This document shows positions 592-35,953 of a stretch of 38,266 nt of DNA, in pieces; within the stretch, counting starts at the first letter, position 1; every line of letters starts with the position of its first letter. The stretch comes from an uncultured bacterium (GTDB taxonomy: Bacteria > B130-G9), in the NCBI GenBank assembly GCA_965372715.1, contig CBDVDH010000037.1:1-38266 (forward strand), read 5' to 3'. The position numbers and the translations under genes were made by a program. Below the pieces are notes generated by a model. It was not told the origin of the DNA. It saw only the letters and a program-made list of their open reading frames with translations, and did no database searches.

Positions 592-2079
592 TTACAGCTG
601 GAGGATCGATAGCGGCGTCTGCATCTGCATGGTCGCGTGCATGAACATCGTCAGCGCAGCCTGCTGCTGGATCATCTGCCTCGTGAGGTTGAGTTGCTCC
701 TCGACCATGTCGGCCCTCACTATGCGGTCCCTAGCTGCCGTGTTGTTCTCGATCATGGTCGCGAGCGAGCTCTCTCTTATTTGCAGTCTCTGAGATGTCG
801 AACCCAACAGTGTCTCGAACGTTTCCACAGTTGAAATCGCGATGTCGATATGCGCCAGACTCGTCGAGGAGGCGTTCGCAGTCCCAAGACTGATGCCTTC
901 CGCTCCGAGGACACCGGAAATATCAGGGCTCGTGACCCTAGCGGCCTCGGCTTTGATCGAGAAGCTGTCACCCTCTATGAAGTCATCTGTGTGCCCCATC
1001 TGGTCGTAGTCGCTGAACTGGACAGTGATCCCTGAATCCCAAGAGCCATTGCTGATCGTGGCCTTGCCCGTGGAGTCCAGTGATAGTGTGCCGGTTTCCT
1101 GCGTGCCATCAGCGCCGCTGAAAGTGAAAGCTGCGGTCATCTGGCTCTGGCTGGAGATGACTGTCGCGTTGCCGGACCCGGTGACGTTGATCTGGATCGT
1201 GCCATCGACCTCGCCTATGTATGAGCTAGCGGCCGTGGCGGCGGCAGTGCCTGTCGAGCCCTTGTTGCGAAACGACTCGAAGGCGTGAATAATGGAGGCG
1301 GTCGAGCTAAAGGTTGTCCTGTCTCCAACAGCGTAGTCAGTAGAGTTGCCGCTGGCCTCGAGTTGGAACTCAACACCTGCGTCGGAATATGCTGAGCCAA
1401 CGACGCCGGTCGCCTCAGGCGGCTCGCCGGTCGTCGTGCTCTTCACGTTGAACGTCCCAGAACTTGTGAACTCGATCGTCCACTCCGCCGTCTGGACAAG
1501 ACTGTAATCGGTTATATAGGTGTATCGGCCATCACTATCGGTCGTCCACCGAACCTCGGCTGCATCGCCGGTTGCGCCGACCCCGATCTCGCGAGCATAG
1601 AAGCTCTGGTCGATCTTGATCGCGGTGATGTCCCCTGGACTTGGCCCAGTCTGGAAATTGAATAGACCGGCGCCGTTAAGCAACTGTCTGCGGCCCCAGG
1701 TCGTCTGCTTGACCATGTCATCGACCTCTTTGATCTGTTCGGCGATGGTCCTCGCCAGAGCGGACCGCTCCGGGCCCGATTTGGTGGAGTCAGACGCGGT
1801 CAAAGCTGTAGCTCGCATCTCACTGAGAAGGTCCTTGATACCCTTCAGGCCGCCCTCTGCAACCGCGACGAGGTTGCTGGCGTTGCCGACGTTGACCTTC
1901 GCGGTGGTCAGGCCCGAGATGGTCTTGTTCATCATCTCCGAGATGACGTAGTCGGCAGGATTGTCTGATGCCCTTGAGACCTTAAGACCAGTGGCGATCC
2001 TTCGCTCTGTCTGCCCGATGTCCCTCGACAACAGCGCGAGCATGTGCTGAATACCAACTGCTTGTGTTTCTGCGTTCAC
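592..2079 (-). CDS. fliC: Flagellin (copy 1, sigma54-preceded)
   Basis: Flagellin N domain (RIATGLKVSRASDNPA...VAEGGL) and C domain (LGSTSQRL...AARDRIVRADMVEE...QQQAA); GTG start preceded by GGAGG. Confidence 0.9.
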   Translation of the reverse strand: MNAETQAVGIQHMLALLSRDIGQTERRIATGLKVSRASDNPADYVISEMMNKTISGLTTAKVNVGNASNLVAVAEGGLKGIKDLLSEMRATALTASDSTKSGPERSALARTIAEQIKEVDDMVKQTTWGRRQLLNGAGLFNFQTGPSPGDITAIKIDQSFYAREIGVGATGDAAEVRWTTDSDGRYTYITDYSLVQTAEWTIEFTSSGTFNVKSTTTGEPPEATGVVGSAYSDAGVEFQLEASGNSTDYAVGDRTTFSSTASIIHAFESFRNKGSTGTAAATAASSYIGEVDGTIQINVTGSGNATVISSQSQMTAAFTFSGADGTQETGTLSLDSTGKATISNGSWDSGITVQFSDYDQMGHTDDFIEGDSFSIKAEAARVTSPDISGVLGAEGISLGTANASSTSLAHIDIAISTVETFETLLGSTSQRLQIRESSLATMIENNTAARDRIVRADMVEEQLNLTRQMIQQQAALTMFMHATMQMQTPLSILQL

Positions 2080-3635: not shown

Positions 3636-5123
3636 CTATATACTGAGGATTGACAGAGGTAGTTGCATCTGCATCGTCGCGTGCGCGAACATCGCAAGCG
3701 CAGCCTGCTGCTGCACCGTGTACCTAGTCAGGTTCAGCTGCTCCTCAACCAGGTCAGCTTTCACGATACGGTCCATGGCCGCCGTGTTGTTCTCGATCAT
3801 TGTCGAGAGTGAGCTCTCCCTGATCTGAAGCCTCCGGGATGTCGAACCAAGAATCGTCTCATACGTCTCCACCAACGAGATCGCCTTGTCGATGTGAGCG
3901 ATTGAGGTCGAGGCAGCGGCCGCAGACGTCAGGCTGATGCCGCTCTCCCCAAGGATACCCGTCGTGTCGGGTCCCGTTACGGATGCAGCGGTAACGTCAA
4001 ACGAGAAGCTGTCGCCAGCCACGAAGTCGTTCGTGCTTCCGATCTGGTCGTAGTCGCTGAGCTGAATCGTGATCCCAGAATCCCACGCACCATCGACCAG
4101 GCTGGCCTTGCCGTCCGCGTCGATCGACAACGTGCCGCTGTGTTCTGTCCCATCCGTGCCGCTGAACGTGAATGAAGCGGTCAGCTGGCCCTGACTGGAT
4201 ATGACCGTCGCGTTACCAGACCCAGTGACGTTGATCTGGAACGTCCCGTTCATCTCACCTGTGTACTGGCTTCCGGCGGTTGCGGCCGCGTTGCCTGTCG
4301 TGCCTTTGCTGCGAAACGTCTCAACCGCGTCAATGGCCGCCGCCTGGCTGCTGAAGGTGATCCTGTCGCCAACCGCGTAGTCAGTGGAGTTGGCGCTCGC
4401 CGCCAGCTGGAACGTGATGCCAGCGTCTGCATACGCCGAACCGACCGCGCCTGTTGAAGTTGGGGGCTCATGGATCGTCGTGCTAGTTACGTTGAACGTG
4501 CCAGCGCTCGTGAACTCGATTGTCCACTCCGCATCCTCAGCCGCGCTGTAGTCGGCAACGTAGATCTTCCGACCATCTGAGTCTTCCGTCCAGTCCGCCT
4601 GAGCGGCCGAACCAGTCAGGCCCACACCGATCTCTCGAGCGTAGAAACTCTGGTCGATCTTGATCGATGTTACGTCGCCCGGGTTTGCACCCGTCTGGAA
4701 GTTGAACAACCCTGCGCCATTGAGCAGCATATTGCCGCCCCACGTGGTCTGCTTGACCATGTCATCAACTTCCTTCATCATCTCGTCAACCGTCCGGCCC
4801 AACGCGGCGCGCTCTGCCCCGGATTTCGTAGCGTCAGCGGCCGTCAATGCGGTCGCTCGCATTTCGCTGAGAAGGCTCTTGATGCCGGTCATGCCGCCTT
4901 CCCCAACCGCCACTAGGTTGCTGGCGTTGCCGACGTTGGCCCTGGCCGTCTGAAGACCATTGATCGTTTTGCTCATCATCTGAGAGATGACGTAGTCGGC
5001 GGGGTTGTCAGACGCCTTGGACACCTTGTAGCCCGTCGAGATCCTGTTCTGGGTCGTGGCCACAAGCGTGCTGATTGAGGCAAGCATATTCTGTATGCCA
5101 ATAGCTTGCGTTTCTGCGTTCAT
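3636..5123 (-). CDS. fliC: Flagellin (copy 2, sigma28-preceded)
   Basis: Paralog of 592..2079. Start reassigned to the ATG at 5123 (MNAETQAIG) with GGAGG upstream, giving the same 495 aa length. Confidence 0.9.
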   Translation of the reverse strand: MNAETQAIGIQNMLASISTLVATTQNRISTGYKVSKASDNPADYVISQMMSKTINGLQTARANVGNASNLVAVGEGGMTGIKSLLSEMRATALTAADATKSGAERAALGRTVDEMMKEVDDMVKQTTWGGNMLLNGAGLFNFQTGANPGDVTSIKIDQSFYAREIGVGLTGSAAQADWTEDSDGRKIYVADYSAAEDAEWTIEFTSAGTFNVTSTTIHEPPTSTGAVGSAYADAGITFQLAASANSTDYAVGDRITFSSQAAAIDAVETFRSKGTTGNAAATAGSQYTGEMNGTFQINVTGSGNATVISSQGQLTASFTFSGTDGTEHSGTLSIDADGKASLVDGAWDSGITIQLSDYDQIGSTNDFVAGDSFSFDVTAASVTGPDTTGILGESGISLTSAAAASTSIAHIDKAISLVETYETILGSTSRRLQIRESSLSTMIENNTAAMDRIVKADLVEEQLNLTRYTVQQQAALAMFAHATMQMQLPLSILSI

Positions 5124-5129
5124 TTGTTT

Positions 5130-5190
5130 CCTCCGTGATTTCAGCCATGAACATGGCTGGTGTTCGGGCATCCTTGCCCTAGTTCCTAGC
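5130..5190 (-). promoter_or_regulatory. Putative CsrA/RsmA binding sites in flagellin leader
   Basis: Minus strand GGGCA-AGGA-TGCCC hairpin with AGGA loop (5166-5179), a second AGGA just upstream and ACGGA overlapping the SD. Confidence 0.55.
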
Positions 5191-5408: not shown

Positions 5409-5479
5409 GTAGGGGCGGACCCCCGCGTCCGCCCTCCGTGATTCAATTGGATCGGGCAGGCGCGGGGGCCTGCCCCTAC
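5409..5479. repeat. GTAG-type REP-like inverted pair
   Basis: GTAGGGGCGGACCCCCGCGTCCGCCC ... GGGCAGGCGCGGGGGCCTGCCCCTAC; the terminal CTAC contains the TAG stop of the radical SAM gene. Confidence 0.75.
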
Positions 5480-6489
5480 AACACGTGCTCGCCCTCGCGC
5501 GCGGACATGCGGCCGTCGAAGCGCCCGTCAACGTGCTCCGTCTCATACTCCGAGCAAAAGCTGCACAGCGAGCAGAAGCGCCCGTGGCCGTGATCCGCGC
5601 GCAGGCGAATCATTTCGCCCGAATTGAGGATGCTTGTTATATCTTGCTCGGTGGCATCTCCCACCTGAAGCGCCCCGTCATAGTCCACGCAACACGCAAC
5701 CACCCGGCCGTCCCAAAGAACCACAAGCGTTCCCTTCCATAGCTCCCGACACGGCCTGACGCGTCTCACCTCATCGTAGGTCAACATCGGCTGAAAACTT
5801 ATGTAGTCCACCTTGCCTGCCCAGACCGACTTGAACCGCTCCACCTGATGCTCCGTGTCCGCCGAGACCACGTAGTTGATCTCGACCCGGAGCCTCGGAT
5901 TATGCTTCTCCTTCATCTTCAGGAAGCCCAATAGATTCTGCTCCAATACGCGGTAATCAACCCCCCGAAGCGAGGTATAGACATCGTCGAGTCCGTCTAT
6001 TGAGAAGCATATAGTCGAAAGGCCGGCCCGAATGATCTCTTCAGACAGCGACGGCGTCAGCAAAGTACCGTTTGTAACCATGAACGTTCTATGGCCGAGG
6101 CGCGTTGCCATTTGAATGATACCTGCAAGCTCGGGATGCAGCAGCGGCTCGCCCCAGTCGTAAAGATATACGTATTGAAGATGCTTGCAGCCTCTCAGAG
6201 CCCTTTCTGCGAGAGCGGGGTCCATGAATCCCCTCTGTCGCGTCATCTTCTCGCTCGGACAAAAGCAACACTTCAGGTTGCAGCGATTCGTCACCTCAAG
6301 CATGACGCTTGTGAGATAGAACGTCTTGGGGAGCCTCAGAACGAACGCGAGATGATTCAGCGCGGACCTCGCGAGATCGGCCGGGGTTTTACACCTATCA
6401 AAGACTACATCCGCGACCTGCCTGTTCCTGGCAATCCTCCGCGCGGCGATCAAGGCAAGGGAGCGCGCAGCCGCCTCAAGCTTGCCCAT
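5476..6489 (-). CDS. Radical SAM protein with C-terminal SPASM/twitch domain
   Basis: CxxxCxxC (CNLKCCFC), WGEPLLHP, TNG, SIDG; C-terminal CRELW...GRVVACC...LCSFC; 5' end overlaps the gatE 3' end by 14 bp. Confidence 0.88.
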   Translation of the reverse strand: MGKLEAAARSLALIAARRIARNRQVADVVFDRCKTPADLARSALNHLAFVLRLPKTFYLTSVMLEVTNRCNLKCCFCPSEKMTRQRGFMDPALAERALRGCKHLQYVYLYDWGEPLLHPELAGIIQMATRLGHRTFMVTNGTLLTPSLSEEIIRAGLSTICFSIDGLDDVYTSLRGVDYRVLEQNLLGFLKMKEKHNPRLRVEINYVVSADTEHQVERFKSVWAGKVDYISFQPMLTYDEVRRVRPCRELWKGTLVVLWDGRVVACCVDYDGALQVGDATEQDITSILNSGEMIRLRADHGHGRFCSLCSFCSEYETEHVDGRFDGRMSAREGEHVL

Positions 6490-8419
6490 AAGCCTTACTC
6501 AAGGCCGTGCGGAGGGCCTTAGCAACCCCCCTGGGCTGAAGCTTCCAGGCAGATGAGCACATGATGTCGCCCATCAGCGCCTCAAACACCTTATCTTCCG
6601 GCAGCGCTTCAAGCAGCTCTCGCCGAACCTCAATTCGCGCTGAAATGAACGCATCAAGCGCTCTTTTATCTAGTAGGTCCAGCCGATAGCGCTCGACCGC
6701 AACCTCAAGGGCATCGTCTAAGACGAGAATATCCCGCATCACCCACGCGACGGCTTCCTTCGACAACCTGCCCTCCTTGTAGGTCCTGAAAAGCTCGAAC
6801 ATCTCGTCGTCCAGAAGCCCCGACACGTCGAAACCAGCCCGCTCAAACCTCCTCAATCGCTGCGTGAGGACCGACGCCGCAAAACGCGGCTCAACGTTCA
6901 GTTCAGCCACAATTCGGTCGAAGACCAGCCAGCGCCCGTTGCGCATCAACTGCTTGACCGTCTCATCCGAGAGGCCGAGCTTGCGGAAACGCTCGTAGGC
7001 CTCGAATGGGTTGGCCCGGATATGGCCCTTTGTGCGCTCGGCACACTCAATCGGAACCGCAAGCGGCGGCAGATCGGTATCAGGATACATCCGATCGGGC
7101 CCAGGCAGGATTCGTTCAAAGCCTGTCGTCCCATCATCATACGCCTGCCTCGTCTCATTCGGAACACCGTCAATTGCGTCCTCTATTCTCAGTCGCGCCT
7201 CTGAAACTGCCGTCTTGACGTCCGGCCTGTTGCCCCAGACCAGAATGACTGCATCGTCCTTCGAGGCGCCAAGCGCGGAGAATATCTCTGCCCAAGCCTC
7301 GTCGCTGAGGTCACCGGTCTGCGTCTTGCCATCACTCCAGAGTATGTTGGGCTCGCCGTCCAGGCACGCAATGACCTTGATCCGCTGCGAGACCTCGAAG
7401 CCGAAGGTCTTATCGGGCTGTAGCTCGAAGCCAAGAAGTCCGGCAAGCCTGCCGAGCCCAATTGCCTCAACGCAGTTGCCCGGTTCTGCACCGAGCCCTG
7501 CTCCTAGGATTTCGGAGCCATGTTCACCAATAATACCGGTGACGTCCTTGTCCCAGCACTTCAGGCTGTCCTTTGTGACGCCGCGATTCGCGAGCTCGTC
7601 CCTGAGCTCCAGCAGGTGCTTCTGCCGCAGCGCCTCGAAATGGACAAGCGGGCCAATACGGGCGATCTGCGGAACGCCCTTTATCTCGACTCGCGTTGAG
7701 CCTGCGATGCTGACGTTCACGTCCTGACGCACGCTGCCTAGACCGCGTTGCACGAGTCCCGTCGCCTTGAGGCTCGTGCCGATCTGCTCCGCGACGCCCT
7801 GAACCTCCTGAGGCGTAACCATGTCGCGCTCGGTAACGACCTCGATGAGCGGCGTGCCGAGGCGATCGGCCTTGAACGTAATGCGGTGGCCGACGTCCGA
7901 GACTTCCCGGCAGGCATCCTCCTCGAGGCCGAGCTGCCGGACGCGGATTTTTCTGCCTTTGCAGTGGATGGCGCCGTCTATCCCTATGATGCAGGTCCGC
8001 TGGAAGCCCGTCGGGATACTCCCGTCGAGATATTGTTTGCGAGTTATGAATATCTCGTCGATCAGCGTGCAGCCGAGAAGCGTCGCAATGACGAGCGCAA
8101 TATCTACGGCGTCCTGATTGATCATAAACGGCGGCGTGTCGTCCATCTCATACGTGCAAACACAGTCGTGATACAGCTGATAGACGACCTCTTTCTTGGT
8201 CTTGAACTCCATCAACGCCGTCCCGTCGTATTCGCCGAGCTCGGACAGCGTGGGACGCATGTGCCGCACCACAACGGCGTCGAAATCGTTGTCTTTGTGC
8301 ATGATTACCGGACAGCGGCAGAAGAGCTTCTTTGACGTTTTGATCTGCTGGTGTATCTCAATGCCGGACGTGAGGCCTAGCTCTTTGTATTCCTCGTCGC
8401 TCAGATAATCGACCTTCAA
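6476..8419 (-). CDS. gatE: Archaeal-type Glu-tRNA(Gln) amidotransferase subunit E
   Basis: 647 aa; GIEIHQQ..KKLFCRCP, RPTLSELGE, DGS..TGFQRT, LEEDA, DRLGTPLIEV, RGLGSVRQDVNVSI, RVEIKGV, an insertion domain and GVPNETR...RILPGPDRMYPDTD. Length and motifs fit GatE rather than GatB. TTG start with AGGAG SD. Confidence 0.9.
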   Translation of the reverse strand: MKVDYLSDEEYKELGLTSGIEIHQQIKTSKKLFCRCPVIMHKDNDFDAVVVRHMRPTLSELGEYDGTALMEFKTKKEVVYQLYHDCVCTYEMDDTPPFMINQDAVDIALVIATLLGCTLIDEIFITRKQYLDGSIPTGFQRTCIIGIDGAIHCKGRKIRVRQLGLEEDACREVSDVGHRITFKADRLGTPLIEVVTERDMVTPQEVQGVAEQIGTSLKATGLVQRGLGSVRQDVNVSIAGSTRVEIKGVPQIARIGPLVHFEALRQKHLLELRDELANRGVTKDSLKCWDKDVTGIIGEHGSEILGAGLGAEPGNCVEAIGLGRLAGLLGFELQPDKTFGFEVSQRIKVIACLDGEPNILWSDGKTQTGDLSDEAWAEIFSALGASKDDAVILVWGNRPDVKTAVSEARLRIEDAIDGVPNETRQAYDDGTTGFERILPGPDRMYPDTDLPPLAVPIECAERTKGHIRANPFEAYERFRKLGLSDETVKQLMRNGRWLVFDRIVAELNVEPRFAASVLTQRLRRFERAGFDVSGLLDDEMFELFRTYKEGRLSKEAVAWVMRDILVLDDALEVAVERYRLDLLDKRALDAFISARIEVRRELLEALPEDKVFEALMGDIMCSSAWKLQPRGVAKALRTALSKAYGQA

Positions 8420-8497
8420 CCCTGAACTCTCCTTCGCTCACCAGGCAACCAATTCGCCGTTTTCCCGGACGGCTAACCGCCAACCGCCAACCGATCA

Positions 8498-8572
8498 TGG
8501 TTGGGGCGGGAGGATTTGAACCTCCACCTCGAGGTATAAAGCCCCGCGTCGTCCCAGTTCGACCACGCCCCT
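8498..8572 (-). tRNA. Non-canonical tRNA, anticodon UUA (ochre-reading), CCA encoded
   Basis: 75-nt cloverleaf: AGGGGCG TG GTCG AACTGGGA CGAC G CGGGG CTTTATA CCTCG AGGT GGAGG TTCAAAT CCTCC CGCCCCA A CCA; U8, A14, G18G19, U33, T-loop and A15-U48 intact. Confidence 0.85.
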
Positions 8573-8597: not shown

Positions 8598-8625
8598 AAG
8601 ATAACATAGTGAGTCAGTCGGTCAA
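8598..8625 (-). promoter_or_regulatory. Sigma70-type promoter for tRNA-gatE unit
   Basis: Minus strand TTGACC-N16-TATCTT with extended -10 TG, 25 nt upstream of the tRNA. Confidence 0.55.
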
Positions 8626-9239: not shown

Positions 9240-9614
9240 GGAGCAGGGGAGGCGGTCGCTGGCGCGTTTAGCGCTGGAGGAAAGTCCGGACTCCGCAGGG
9301 CAGGGTGCTGGGTAACTCCCAGGGGGGGTGACCCCATGGAAAGTGCAACAGAGAGCAGACCGCGAACTCGCCTTGTTTGGCGAACGCAAGGGTGAAACGG
9401 TGAGGTAAGAGCTCACCAGCGGCTCGGGTGACCGGGCCGGCTAGGTAAACCCCGCTCGGAGCAAGACCAAATATGGGGGCGTTTGAGCGTGGCCCGCGCG
9501 AGCCCCCGGGTGGGTCGCACGAGGCGCCGGGGAACCGGCGTCCCAGATAAATGGCCGCTGCCCGCTGTGCGAGCAATCGCCCGCGGGAACAGAATCCGGC
9601 TTACCCCCTGCTCT
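9240..9614 (+). ncRNA. rnpB: RNase P RNA, bacterial type A
   Basis: GAGGAAAGTCCGGACTCC, GGAAAGTGCAACAGA, GGTGAAACGG, GGTAAACCCC..GGAGCAAG, AACAGAATCCGGCTTA; P1 pairing GAGCAGGGG/CCCCTGCTC. Confidence 0.97.
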
Positions 9615-9622
9615 GGCGCCTT

Positions 9623-33320: not shown

Positions 33321-35953
33321 ATGTTGAGAAGGAATTGGTCGGCGGTGTTGTTGGCTGCTGTGCTTGCTGGGCTGCTATTGTTGCCTCTCATCGCGCGAGG
33401 CGGCGAGGAGAAGGAGCATGATAAGCAGCTGCTGAAGGCGACAAAGCACCTTCGCAAGATAGTGAAGCAGGACGGCCCGGAGAGCATCGAGTTCCCCTGG
33501 GATGCGGACAAGCACAAGATCGATGACAAGAAAGAGCCACCCGACTTCACCTCATATTACGCCAGGACCGTCAAGATCGGAGAGGACCCGAAGATACGGA
33601 CCGACGGCGATTCGATAACGAGCACGATATTTGTCGGCACTAAGAAAGTGGGACAGCGATTCAAGGTCGAGAACTGGCGGGTCTTCTGGGAGAAAAAGGG
33701 CGATCACTATGTGGCGACCTCGAGGCAAGTTATCCAGTCCTTTGATGAGTTCTATGCCCCATTTCACAAAAAGGAAGTTCGCCAATCCAAGGCCTTCCTG
33801 AGGAGCGTCTTTGAGTTTGGGAACATGCAGTTCGAGCACGACCGCATGCGCTTCTCTGTCCCGAAAGGGCGATTGGTTCTGATTGAGGCTGACGGGAAGC
33901 CCTTTGCTGGCTACATCACGGGTAAGGGCGAACTCTCCTACGATCCGCCAACACAGCTTGCCTCGAATGCGGTCGATTCAGATAGAGAGACTCAGCAGTT
34001 TAAGCACCATCTGGAGACAGACAGATTGGACGGTTGTGGATTCAGCAACGCGGTCGTCTGGGGTCATCCTAATTGGATGAGAGCGTTTCTGGACAGGCTC
34101 GAATTGAGGCCTGTTGAGAGCCAGGATGAGCTTCAGAGGGAGGCCCGGGATGCATTTTTTGAGCGACTTCTGCCCATAATGAGAGGAAAGGACCTCGCAT
34201 TTGGCGGGTCGGAATATCCCATCTGTATCCTTCCCGACAGCCGGGATTTTCTTCGCTTCGAATTCGACACGCCTAAGCACGACCTGCTGTCATATACGTT
34301 CGATCCCTCATCCATTAGGGAAATCTCATTGTGCAAGCGCTCGAAGCAACAGATGTCAAAACGCAAATTCAAATGGTTCAAGACAGTCTGTGAATACGAT
34401 GAATCGGGCCAGCGCAAAGAGAAAACTCTGCATCAGCTTCAGCACGAGAGCAAGGACAGCGTCAAGACCGTGTCCTGGTCGGCAGATGTCAGATTCGAGA
34501 GGGGGATGCTTGATAAGGTCAAGAAGGGCAAGTTCGAGATTATCTTTGAATACGAGACGCTCAAGCCAAATGCCACAGTCGCCATGTTTGACTTCTCCGC
34601 GCTTAATCCGACCGCCCTGACCGACGCTGGCGGCAACGACATGCTGTTCTTCGACATGGGTTCAGAACTCCTAGTCCCCGTCGATCCGGTCGATTGCCCT
34701 GCGGGGAGGATGAACGTGCTTTTCGCGGAGGGTCGAGAGCCAGGCGATATCGACTGGACTCACGGTTACATGGATGGTTGGTTGCCTGGATCGGGCTATC
34801 TAGACTGCAAGGCGTTTGAGCTGAAGATAACCGTTCCGGAGAAATTCCAGGTGACTTCAGTGGGGAAGCTGCTCGAAGAGCAAGTCCACCACGGCTATCG
34901 AACGAAGCATTGGGTTGGAGAACACTGCACCAGATTCCCAGGATTTGTGATAGGAGAATTGTTCATTCTCGATGGTGAGGCAGGAGGTAAGCCGATCGTT
35001 ATCTATTCCAAGGACAACGCACAGGCTAGGAAATACGTCCTTCCAGAGATCGAGAGCAGTCTGACTTTCTACGCCAAATGCTTTGGAGAATACCCATATT
35101 CAAAGCTATCCGTCTGTCCGGTCAACTGGTCTCATGGCAGAGGATTCGCCTCCCTCGTGACTATTACGGGTCGTCATGGACTTCTTGGCGATGCACAGCC
35201 TGGCCTCTACTGCCATGAGGTGTCGCACCAGTGGTGGGGGAACATCGTCGGCTGGTTCTCGCCTGCTGACCAGTGGCTCTCCGAGGGCTTCGCCGAGATG
35301 TCCACTCTGATGTATCTCCAATCCGCACGGGACAACGACTCCGTCAAGGGACGATTGAAAGACTGGGCCTATAGCGCCAAGAAGCTCGACGAGAAGGGGC
35401 CTATATGCCTGGGGGCTACCCTCGATTGGGCCGGCGCGCTGGCTACCAACTCATGTATCACAAGGGCGCCTACGTGATGCACATGCTGCGGATGATGGTG
35501 GGCGACGAGGAGCTCATCCGGATACTGCGCACGTTCGTCGAGCAGTTCAAATGGAAGCAGGCGACGACGTCCGACTTTCAGGAGGTCTGCGAGCTGGCGC
35601 TTGGCCGAGAGCGGCTTATCGAGCTCGGCGGCGAGCCATCGCTTGGCTGGTTCTTCGACGAGTGGATATACAGCACCGGCTACCCTAAATACGAGTATTC
35701 CTGGAGCACGAAGAAGGCCACGGGCGGCGCCTGGGAAGTAACCTGCAAGATCAAGCAGGTCGGCGATAAGCTCTTCAAGATGCCGCTTCCGATATGGATA
35801 TTCACGAAAGGCGGAAAGCGCTACGTCTCGTCGAGGCTTGTGCACGAAAAGGAACACGAGTTCGTCCTGACCGTCCCGTCAAAGCCCAAGAAAGTCGAGC
35901 TCGACCCGTTCAACAGCGTCCTGTGCGACGTCAAACAGAAATCCATGGAGTGA
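33321..35953 (+). pseudogene. Secreted M1-family zinc metallopeptidase split by a frameshift (true lesion or sequencing error)
   Basis: HEVSHQWWG and WLSEGFAE in ORF 33321..35477; the catalytic-Tyr region 'YHKGAYVMHMLR' and the C-terminus are in another frame (35405..35953); junction near the G5 run at 35411-35415. Confidence 0.8.

Follow-up and report, generated by a model that had tools for sequence, protein, structure and literature searches.

Why should a flagellin-encoding bacterium carry a gatE gene of archaeal signature with no gatD alongside? The question is raised by a contig of 38,266 nucleotides from an uncultured bacterium (CBDVDH010000037.1; this whole stretch is called the window below), in which a preliminary description, made from the letters alone, had recognized gatE. 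GatDE is called archaea-only, and is said to have co-evolved with the archaeal A1-U72 tRNA-Gln, in the accessible parts of two papers (PMC2811023; PMC9499178); our literature search, whose coverage left out most subscription journals, found no paper on bacterial GatDE or on a gatE-linked tRNA. We have found that bacterial GatDE proteins form a large clade, already labelled GatE in databases, so that finding a gatE is in itself no novelty. The novelty, peculiar to the phylum of this bacterium, is a gatE split from gatD and in fixed coupling to a non-canonical glutamine-like tRNA, mostly with a stop anticodon, and to a radical SAM gene.

We favor, at a probability of about 0.5, the reading that GatDE here amidates glutamate on the dedicated tRNA encoded upstream. 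In the proposed scheme the single glutamyl-tRNA synthetase (GluRS) of the cell would charge this tRNA with Glu, GatE would phosphorylate the side-chain carboxyl of the tRNA-bound Glu, and ammonia released by the unlinked GatD, acting as the partner of GatE, would then displace the phosphate to give Gln. GatDE would be dedicated to the upstream tRNA, converting its Glu to Gln, while ordinary Gln-tRNA in the phylum would come from GatCAB, serving the canonical tRNA-Gln. We infer the charging enzyme, the action of GatDE on this tRNA and all use of the product.

The tRNA-gatE-radical SAM unit

The elements of the unit, in the order of their transcription, are as follows.

8598..8625, reverse strand: promoter-like site, TTGACC-16 nt-TATCTT with TG before the second hexamer (consensus scan), 26 nt upstream of the tRNA
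8498..8572, reverse strand: non-canonical tRNA with anticodon UUA (ARAGORN; Rfam RF00005 at 51.2 bits, gathering score 29, E 1e-9)
6476..8419, reverse strand: gatE, tRNA-dependent kinase/amidotransferase subunit E, 647 amino acids, TTG start (NCBIfam equivalogs, solved structures, tree)
5476..6489, reverse strand: radical SAM/SPASM gene, 337 amino acids (Pfam Radical_SAM and SPASM), overlapping the end of gatE by 14 nt

The unit is present in all seven genomes of the phylum that were available (four genera), and the genes outside the trio differ among the genera. The tRNA gene, the only one in the window and overlooked in the preliminary description, lies 78 bases upstream of the gatE start; it has an A1-A72 mismatch, U37, a 4-nt variable loop and an encoded CCA. 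The promoter-like stretch is conserved in a genome of the same genus, and the consensus scan detected no terminator-like site between the tRNA and gatE, which are probably co-transcribed. The spacer between them (8420-8497, reverse strand) contains about three copies of a short tandem motif of the GGTTGGC type, and a longer version is present in the same-genus genome.

Homologs of the tRNA (82-100% identity) were found in all seven genomes, the source genome (G000) included. Over the seven copies there is hardly any variation in the acceptor, D and T arms; 50 of the 75 columns of the whole tRNA are invariant, and in the anticodon loop this is true of one column of seven (U35). In the cloverleaf 93.9% of cells pair, versus 47-57% in slid controls; the thermodynamic fold of the tRNA alone was uninformative (z -1.26). 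The anticodon is UUA in five genomes, CUA in one (G052) and CUG, a glutamine anticodon, in one (G055), so a stop-matching anticodon is not conserved among all the relatives. Position 37 is a pyrimidine in all seven copies, C33 occurs in one copy, and at the first pair six genomes have A facing A and one (G056) has U1-A72. A conserved tRNA body with a free anticodon loop would be expected of a non-decoding (carrier or pseudo) tRNA, and this is the pattern observed. A function as carrier or regulator, rather than routine decoding, is what pyrimidine 37, the first-pair mismatch and the variation of the anticodon point to. As to the family of the tRNA, its acceptor positions 2-7 and T stem are identical to those of tRNA-Gln(UUG) of the source genome, and its U11-A24 D stem and 4-nt variable loop are of the Glu/Gln tRNA type.

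A tRNA adjacent to gatE was seen at none of 78 loci from other phyla. When a covariance model of the tRNA was run against 48 other GatDE-bearing genomes, the best 30 loci (of 150 matches listed and 114 more) were all ordinary tRNAs. A pattern scan gave three matches in metagenomes, all on contigs of genomes already counted, and none in the viral collection. The preliminary description had surmised that this GatE may use another tRNA, an idea which gains real support from the non-canonical tRNA directly upstream of gatE in seven genomes out of seven. A separate observation concerns an Ignavibacteria bin (L131 206-281, reverse strand), where a tRNA called Lys(CUU) has the acceptor and D arm of the initiator tRNA-Met located ∼1.2 kb away; it may be an initiator-derived paralog.

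The radical SAM gene lies directly behind gatE in all seven genomes, with an overlap of 14-23 nt. The place it takes is that of gatD at 63 of the 67 other loci where gatD was matched. Across the phylum its product is 68-96% identical (GatE, 68-93%), with a mean column identity of 82%, and the ratio of non-synonymous to synonymous substitution rates (dN/dS) of the gene is 0.16. No NCBIfam model matched the protein at cut-off, and we found neither a characterized family nor a close solved structure for it. The 48 other GatDE-bearing genomes contain no close ortholog, the best matches being 27-36% identical and present in eight of the 48. A complex prediction for GatE with the radical SAM protein gave a score of 0.00, which speaks neither for nor against binding. 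Behind the unit, fliC was observed in genera g1 and g2, accompanied by fliS and flaG wherever the compared sequence extends that far, and not in g3 and g4.

The stop-matching anticodons bring to mind a natural stop-codon suppressor: Gln on the UUA/CUA tRNA would be inserted at UAA/UAG, either weakly or restricted to a few genes or conditions. Such an anticodon is present in six of the seven copies, the tRNA has a canonical CCA end and T arm, and the one-base anticodon changes are those of the classical Escherichia coli glutamine suppressors. A second in-frame stop within three codons follows 14.2% of 374 TAA, 8.0% of 746 TAG and 10.1% of 989 TGA stops, which is weak evidence; back-up stops are commoner after TAA in ordinary genomes as well. 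Several features of the tRNA speak against suppression, namely the pyrimidine 37 of all copies and the C33 of one, both poor for decoding, the difference in anticodon between close genera with the sense anticodon CUG in one of them, and the A1-A72 mismatch, resembling an initiator-tRNA feature that weakens EF-Tu binding. The genome speaks against it too. TAA terminates 490 of the 2880 frames of at least 200 codons; where one stop separates two long frames in the same phase, it is TAA in 96 cases, TAG in 231 and TGA in 278, in proportion to usage; a coding-like continuation past the stop follows 30 of 292 TAA, 48 of 602 TAG and 59 of 766 TGA, with no excess for TAA; and RF1 is present along with a second release-factor-like gene. 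Stop usage, frame pairs and continuation thus give no genome-wide sign of stop-codon reassignment in the source genome, though a handful of recoded genes could still exist. We consider the suppressor quite unlikely.

The radical SAM gene suggests another alternative, new chemistry on a carrier tRNA, in which GatE would activate Glu, the radical SAM/SPASM enzyme would modify the aminoacyl group or the tRNA itself, and the product would enter a non-ribosomal pathway. The occupation of the gatD slot, the overlap and strong conservation of the gene in all seven genomes, the lack of a close ortholog in the 48 other GatDE-bearing genomes and a drifting anticodon, as fits a tRNA not read by mRNA, are in line with it. 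Still, the protein matches no characterized family, gene coupling alone does not show shared chemistry, and the retention of GatD in six of the seven genomes argues for persistent ordinary amidation; this chemistry is very unlikely in our estimate. By analogy with the logic of selenocysteine or pyrrolysine, the whole unit might be a self-contained pathway for making an amino acid on its tRNA, which would be glutamylated and activated by GatE; amidation or some other conversion, in which the radical SAM enzyme takes part, would follow, to yield a product for UAA/UAG in a few genes or for use as a non-ribosomal donor. Put in this general form the idea is unlikely; if true, it would mean a new job in bacteria for an 'archaeal' enzyme.

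GatE and the bacterial GatDE clade

The claim that the gene encodes a full-length GatE with metal-binding motifs held up against both equivalog models and end-to-end structure alignments. An AAGGAG-type ribosome-binding site is located a few bases 5′ of the TTG start. The product scores 549.6 bits with NCBIfam NF003107 (cut-off 456) and 467.9 bits with TIGR00134 (cut-off 319.55), while every GatB model stays below its cut-off for this open reading frame (ORF), the best one giving 163 bits against 338. Pfam detects GatB_N and GatB_Yqey; the latter (35.1 bits, cut-off 27, residues 499-640) corresponds to a YqeY-like C-terminal tail with an altered RGK.DGK motif. Residues 10-642 align with GatE of Pyrococcus abyssi (1zq1_C, 346.6 bits) and residues 11-635 with GatE of Methanothermobacter thermautotrophicus (2d6f_C, 339.4 bits). 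A candidate for the GatE-specific insertion domain (like the GAD domain of aspartyl-tRNA synthetase, and set inside the cradle domain) has a fitting length and aligns with both solved structures; Pfam GAD (PF02938) is unmatched in it at E ≤ 0.01 and the conserved archaeal motif is replaced. By alignment, H23, E166 and E193 correspond to the magnesium ligands H15, E157 and E184 of the M. thermautotrophicus protein, and the three are invariant in 73 bacterial and 46 archaeal GatE rows. According to PMC2330236, these Mg-binding residues are required for kinase and transamidase activity, and their mutation inactivates M. thermautotrophicus GatE.

We compared core conservation in an alignment of 73 bacterial, nine Heimdall-type and 37 other archaeal GatE sequences. 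In the 37 archaeal sequences 96 columns are at least 90% conserved; at 78 of these, the three Mg ligands among them, the archaeal residue is retained by 80% or more of the 73 bacterial rows. Against the gatE of a same-genus genome, dN/dS is 0.19 for the whole gene, 0.075 for the N-terminal cradle and 0.21 for the tail; purifying selection acts on the whole of gatE, tail included. By its sequence the protein looks like a working, functional member of the bacterial GatDE clade which most likely still does GatDE chemistry.

Relatives of this GatE are widespread. A scan of one genome per species gave at least 599 pattern matches, with a relative encoded in at least 589 species genomes, and among the 80 best records no title mentions an archaeon. 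The closest records are labelled Coatesbacteria (74-75% identity), and the source bacterium is accordingly taken as Coatesbacteria-like; records at 36-52% identity come from Aminicenantes, Phycisphaerae, Ignavibacteria, Bacteroidota, Zixibacteria, WOR-3, KSB1, Cloacimonetes, Calditrichota and others. A search of 1.84 billion representatives returned 626 matches at E ≤ 1e-30, with ∼40 clusters at 41-55% identity and then a drop to 31-39%.

Of the 80 best loci, 67 have a gatD match (54-73% identical; 62-73% unless a contig end cuts the match). In 63 of the 67 gatD is on the same strand within ∼620 bases downstream of gatE; in two Zixibacteria loci it is upstream, and in two loci it is 1.7-3.5 kb away. 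Some of the 13 loci with no gatD match may simply be cut short by a contig end. No conserved neighbor beyond gatD was seen across the 80 loci, the next commonest cluster occurring in 11. The aspartate-ammonia ligase gene asnA was observed directly upstream of gatE in a Phycisphaerae locus (L013 4332-5372) and directly upstream of gatD-gatE in a Zixibacteria locus (L070 3358-4488).

A FastTree phylogeny was built from 163 rows: 128 of 150 representatives (22 outside 560-720 amino acids were dropped), the query, 25 named bacterial loci and nine GatB sequences as outgroup. The split between GatE and GatB has a support of 100 in three trees, and the query groups with GatE, as a check proposed at the outset required if the gene was to be a true gatE. 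In the FastTree phylogeny the query and all named bacterial sequences make one clade (62 rows, support 100), and profiles from the remaining groups of the tree retrieve archaeal names only (Heimdallarchaeota, Asgard group, Thor-, Loki-, Promethe- and Helarchaeota, Bathyarchaeia, Thermoprotei, Verstraetearchaeota, Methanocaldococcus, Methanotorris, Hadarchaeum and Odinarchaeota). With IQ-TREE on 81 rows (LG+C20 by posterior mean site frequencies), the 26 bacterial rows again form one clade with a value of 100 in the Shimodaira-Hasegawa-like approximate likelihood ratio test (SH-aLRT), sister (96) to a nine-row Heimdall-type Asgard clade (100). The separate bacterial clade suspected in the preliminary description is thus supported. 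On 42 rows with LG+G4 it was again sister to the Heimdall-type group (94). An approximately unbiased (AU) test on these 42 rows left standing the tree with all archaea together (difference in log-likelihood 11.1, P = 0.17), which makes a basal position of the bacteria compatible with the data; Coatesbacteria sit on a long branch (0.5-0.66). The origin of bacterial GatE that fits the trees best, though not proven, is transfer from an Asgard-like donor. A large bacterial clade, possibly related to Asgard GatE, affects arguments on the amidotransferases of the last common ancestor.

The motifs listed initially, GIEIHQQ, LGLEEDA, PLIEVV, CTYEMDDTPPF, RKQYLDGSIPTG and IKGVPQI, are all present. The last three were thought to deviate from the archaeal pattern; two of them, RKQYLDGSIPTG and CTYEMDDTPPF, are shared with Asgard sequences and are not bacterial inventions. 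RKQYLDGS(I/V)P.GFQRT and C.YE.D.TPPF are common to bacterial and Asgard-type GatE, with RKQYLDGSIPTG representing the Asgard-type state. What truly marks the bacterial sequences is DDTPPF, EEDACREVSD, an insert of three residues (VIACLD..PN) and, frequently, Q250P.

Divergence from the archaeal form is concentrated in the tRNA-facing parts, namely the KVKRG loop, the HTDELP.YG insertion motif and the YqeY-like tail. The portion of PMC2811023 available places the short positive loop KVKRG beside the tRNA's first base pair, and the tail at the D-loop. In the phylum the first loop reads GLV(Q/H/N)RG (GLAHRG in G055) versus GKVKRG in archaea, the insertion motif in seven Coatesbacteria proteins is NI.W.DG...GD, and the tail has LMG..M....(K/R)LEPR.VA.ALR versus LMG..M...RGK.DGK.V in archaea. 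These phylum-specific forms of loop, insertion and tail are kept in all seven genomes and differ from those of the other bacteria compared. The comparison shows, at the level of protein sequence, tRNA-facing elements that were re-shaped and then conserved within the phylum.

Partners, substrates and the role of GatDE

The bacterial context described for the contig is genuine. Besides the unit, the window contains a type II secretion gene set, an extracytoplasmic function (ECF) sigma factor with its anti-sigma factor, and the following features.

592-2079, reverse strand: flagellin gene
3636-5171, reverse strand: second flagellin gene, following the radical SAM gene on the same strand
9240-9618: class A RNase P RNA, 294 bits
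9623-11230, reverse strand: P-loop ATPase of the Sll1717 family, 97.8 bits (cut-off 75)

Contamination from an archaeon was rejected as an explanation of the contig: the bacterial genes are on the same 38-kb contig, and six related genomes have the same tRNA-gatE-radical SAM unit. The ATPase gene lies just past the RNase P RNA gene, and it was not seen in the stretches compared from related genomes. Two overlapping ORFs on the forward strand (33321-35477 and 35405-35953) each match a part of Peptidase_M1 (profile positions 72-120 and 157-208); the pair looks like a frameshift or a sequencing error within one gene.

The source genome (112 contigs, 95.9% complete) supplies the missing partner. 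That there is no gatD alongside gatE was correctly noted, as none is in the window; however, a profile search of the genome located an intact gatD on another contig, C16 (498.9 bits, cut-off 324; 465 amino acids, no internal stops), unlinked to gatE. GatD aligns with 1zq1_A of P. abyssi at 401 bits, including the asparaginase-type stretches GTGGTIAS, HGTDT and RVRKMH. Six of the seven genomes of the phylum have gatD, never on the gatE contig. Since GatD is present with its asparaginase-type motifs, nothing points to another amide donor, and the suggestion of another source of ammonia or an amine was not borne out.

The three GatCAB subunits each pass their cut-off, GatA with 624.8, GatB with 590.2 and GatC with 84.3 bits, and are encoded on three different contigs; GatCAB is complete in all four high-quality genomes of the phylum. 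A profile search detected no glutaminyl-tRNA synthetase (GlnRS), its sole match being GluRS. There are one bacterial GluRS and one bacterial aspartyl-tRNA synthetase (AspRS), no archaeal-type AspRS, and both asparaginyl-tRNA synthetase (AsnRS) and asparagine synthetase AsnB. Among the 49 tRNA genes, the two canonical tRNA-Gln (CUG and UUG) and tRNA-Asn have the bacterial U1-A72 pair. The preliminary description would have given up its inference had gatD and a standard A1-U72 tRNA-Gln been found elsewhere in the genome; gatD was found, and the canonical tRNA-Gln are both U1-A72. The archaeal substrate, Glu on an A1-U72 tRNA-Gln, thus has no counterpart either in these tRNAs or in the gatE-linked one, with A1/A72 in six copies and U1-A72 in one.

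GatCAB alone would cover the formation of Gln-tRNA, so that GatDE is surplus by textbook logic. It may then be a redundant or back-up housekeeping enzyme, amidating canonical Glu-tRNA-Gln beside GatCAB, with the upstream tRNA a co-transcribed spare or decaying copy of tRNA-Gln. Glu-tRNA-Gln must form in a cell without GlnRS, the catalytic core of GatE and GatD are intact, and in other phyla gatED occurs without any adjacent tRNA. Yet decay would not have left the acceptor, D and T arms near-invariant over four genera while only the anticodon loop drifted, and the tRNA-facing elements of GatE were changed and then conserved. Given the complete GatCAB and the U1-A72 of the canonical tRNA-Gln, a plain housekeeping role is insufficient as an explanation; in PMC2330236, as far as its text was available, the pair read by archaeal GatDE is A1-U72. 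We regard this alternative as possible, though doubtful.

To see which companions GatDE has elsewhere, we took 50 of the 80 loci, chosen before any count with longer contigs favored. Genes over cut-off were found for GatB in 23 of the 50 genomes, GlnRS in 40 (plus one fragment just below), AsnRS in 48, AsnB in 33, AsnA in four and GluRS in 46. A second GluRS was considered as the supplier of Glu-tRNA-Gln where GlnRS is also encoded, and the idea was set aside: ten genomes have a second GluRS match, seven of these second matches being over cut-off at full or near-full length. With the fragment counted, GlnRS is present in 41 genomes (17 with GatB, 24 without) and absent from nine (six with GatB, three without). 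Such absences are soft because the genomes are metagenome bins. The counts show that GatDE is usually not the sole route to Gln-tRNA in bacteria; as 40 of the 50 holders have GlnRS, a housekeeping role is doubtful there as well. Most bacterial holders having both GlnRS and AsnRS, the role of GatDE in bacteria becomes a testable question. A side observation is that gltX (GluRS) and glnS (GlnRS) are ∼0.1-2.5 kb apart on the same contig in many GatDE-bearing genomes (G011, G015, G016, G020, G023, G024, G030, G033, G040, G045 and others).

Could the enzyme be an Asp-tRNA-Asn amidotransferase serving tRNA-dependent asparagine synthesis? AsnA and AsnB are both missing from seven of the 27 GatB-less holders of other phyla, and asnA adjoins gatE or gatD at the two loci given above, which account for two of the four asnA genes found among the 50 genomes. 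However, AsnB is present in 20 of these 27 (AsnA adds none), so that tRNA-dependent asparagine synthesis does not explain bacterial GatDE either. The source genome has AsnRS, AsnB and GatCAB, and the gene-linked tRNA of the phylum is Glx-like, with U35. Archaeal GatDE rejects Asp-tRNA-Asn according to the available sections of PMC2811023 and PMC2330236. This possibility is hardly plausible.

The reading that we favor, amidation of Glu on the dedicated tRNA, has its own difficulties. In six of the seven tRNA copies A1 faces A72 where archaea have A1-U72, and no single first-pair rule fits because the G056 copy is U1-A72. The adjacency of the tRNA and gatE may reflect only co-transcription, and no RNA sequencing run holding the window stretch is on record. 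The overall identity of the tRNA is 73% to tRNA-Gln(UUG) and 75% to tRNA-Pro(GGG); as tRNA-Gln is no closer than tRNA-Pro, the glutamine-family assignment is drawn from the architecture and the CUG variant. Finally, a dedicated tRNA leaves GatDE of other phyla unexplained, with GlnRS in 40 of 50 genomes and ordinary tRNAs at the best 30 covariance loci. If GatDE is indeed specific for the linked tRNA, the two would be a natural orthogonal tRNA/enzyme pair in a bacterium, of interest for genetic-code biology and engineering.

Comparison with known systems

Archaeal GatDE (2D6F, 1ZQ1) and the system described here share the full-length domain order, the Mg ligands, most invariant core residues and an asparaginase-type GatD. 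They differ in the bacterial host, the unlinked gatD, the GLVQRG form of the KVKRG loop, the replaced HTDELP.YG and RGK.DGK motifs, the unmatched Pfam GAD and the U1-A72 pair of the canonical tRNA-Gln. Heimdall-type Asgard GatE (relatives of P0153; Heimdallarchaeota, Asgard group and Thorarchaeota by NCBI) is the nearest archaeal group (support 96 and 94) and has RKQYLDGSIP.GFQRT and C.YE.D.TPPF in common with the query; unlike the query it has the archaeal KVKRG loop, HTDE motif and RGK.DGK tail and a Pfam GAD match, and the sister relation is insecure (AU P = 0.17).

With the bacterial GatDE clade (Ignavibacteriota, Bacteroidota, Aminicenantes, Phycisphaerae, Zixibacteria and others) the query shares clade membership (SH-aLRT 100), DDTPPF, EEDACREVSD and the VIACLD..PN insert. 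That clade has gatE-gatD operons and an adjacent tRNA in none of 78 loci, whereas in the query phylum gatD is elsewhere, gatE stands between a tRNA and a radical SAM gene, and the branch is long. Bacterial GatCAB, also present in the source genome, has the same reaction type and a homologous kinase subunit; GatB, in contrast, has no insertion domain and is paired with the amidase GatA via GatC. GatCAB reads U1-A72 with a 3-10 turn, as described in the accessible part of PMC2811023.

Among tRNAs, the pseudo-tRNA tRNAOther of Bacillus cereus has no function in translation (PMC3399842). Both it and the gatE-linked tRNA are tRNA-shaped chromosomal RNAs for which a non-decoding role is plausible; the available part of PMC3399842 describes no link to an amidotransferase.

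The E. coli supE (amber) and supB (ochre) tRNAs are laboratory-mutant decoding tRNA-Gln with purine 37 and an anticodon changed from YUG to YUA. The gatE-linked tRNA is like them in its tRNA-Gln-type body and YUA anticodon, and unlike them in being a conserved natural paralog with pyrimidine 37, a mismatched first pair and an anticodon varying by genus. Dedicated tRNAs with on-tRNA amino-acid synthesis are known from selenocysteine, made via PSTK/SepSecS, and from the pylT operon with its radical SAM enzyme PylB. In the present phylum, unlike in these systems, the anticodon is not fixed and recoded genes give no sign of themselves. The likeness, an analogy only, lies in a stop-anticodon tRNA whose gene is accompanied by those of a tRNA-dependent enzyme of kinase type and of a radical SAM protein.

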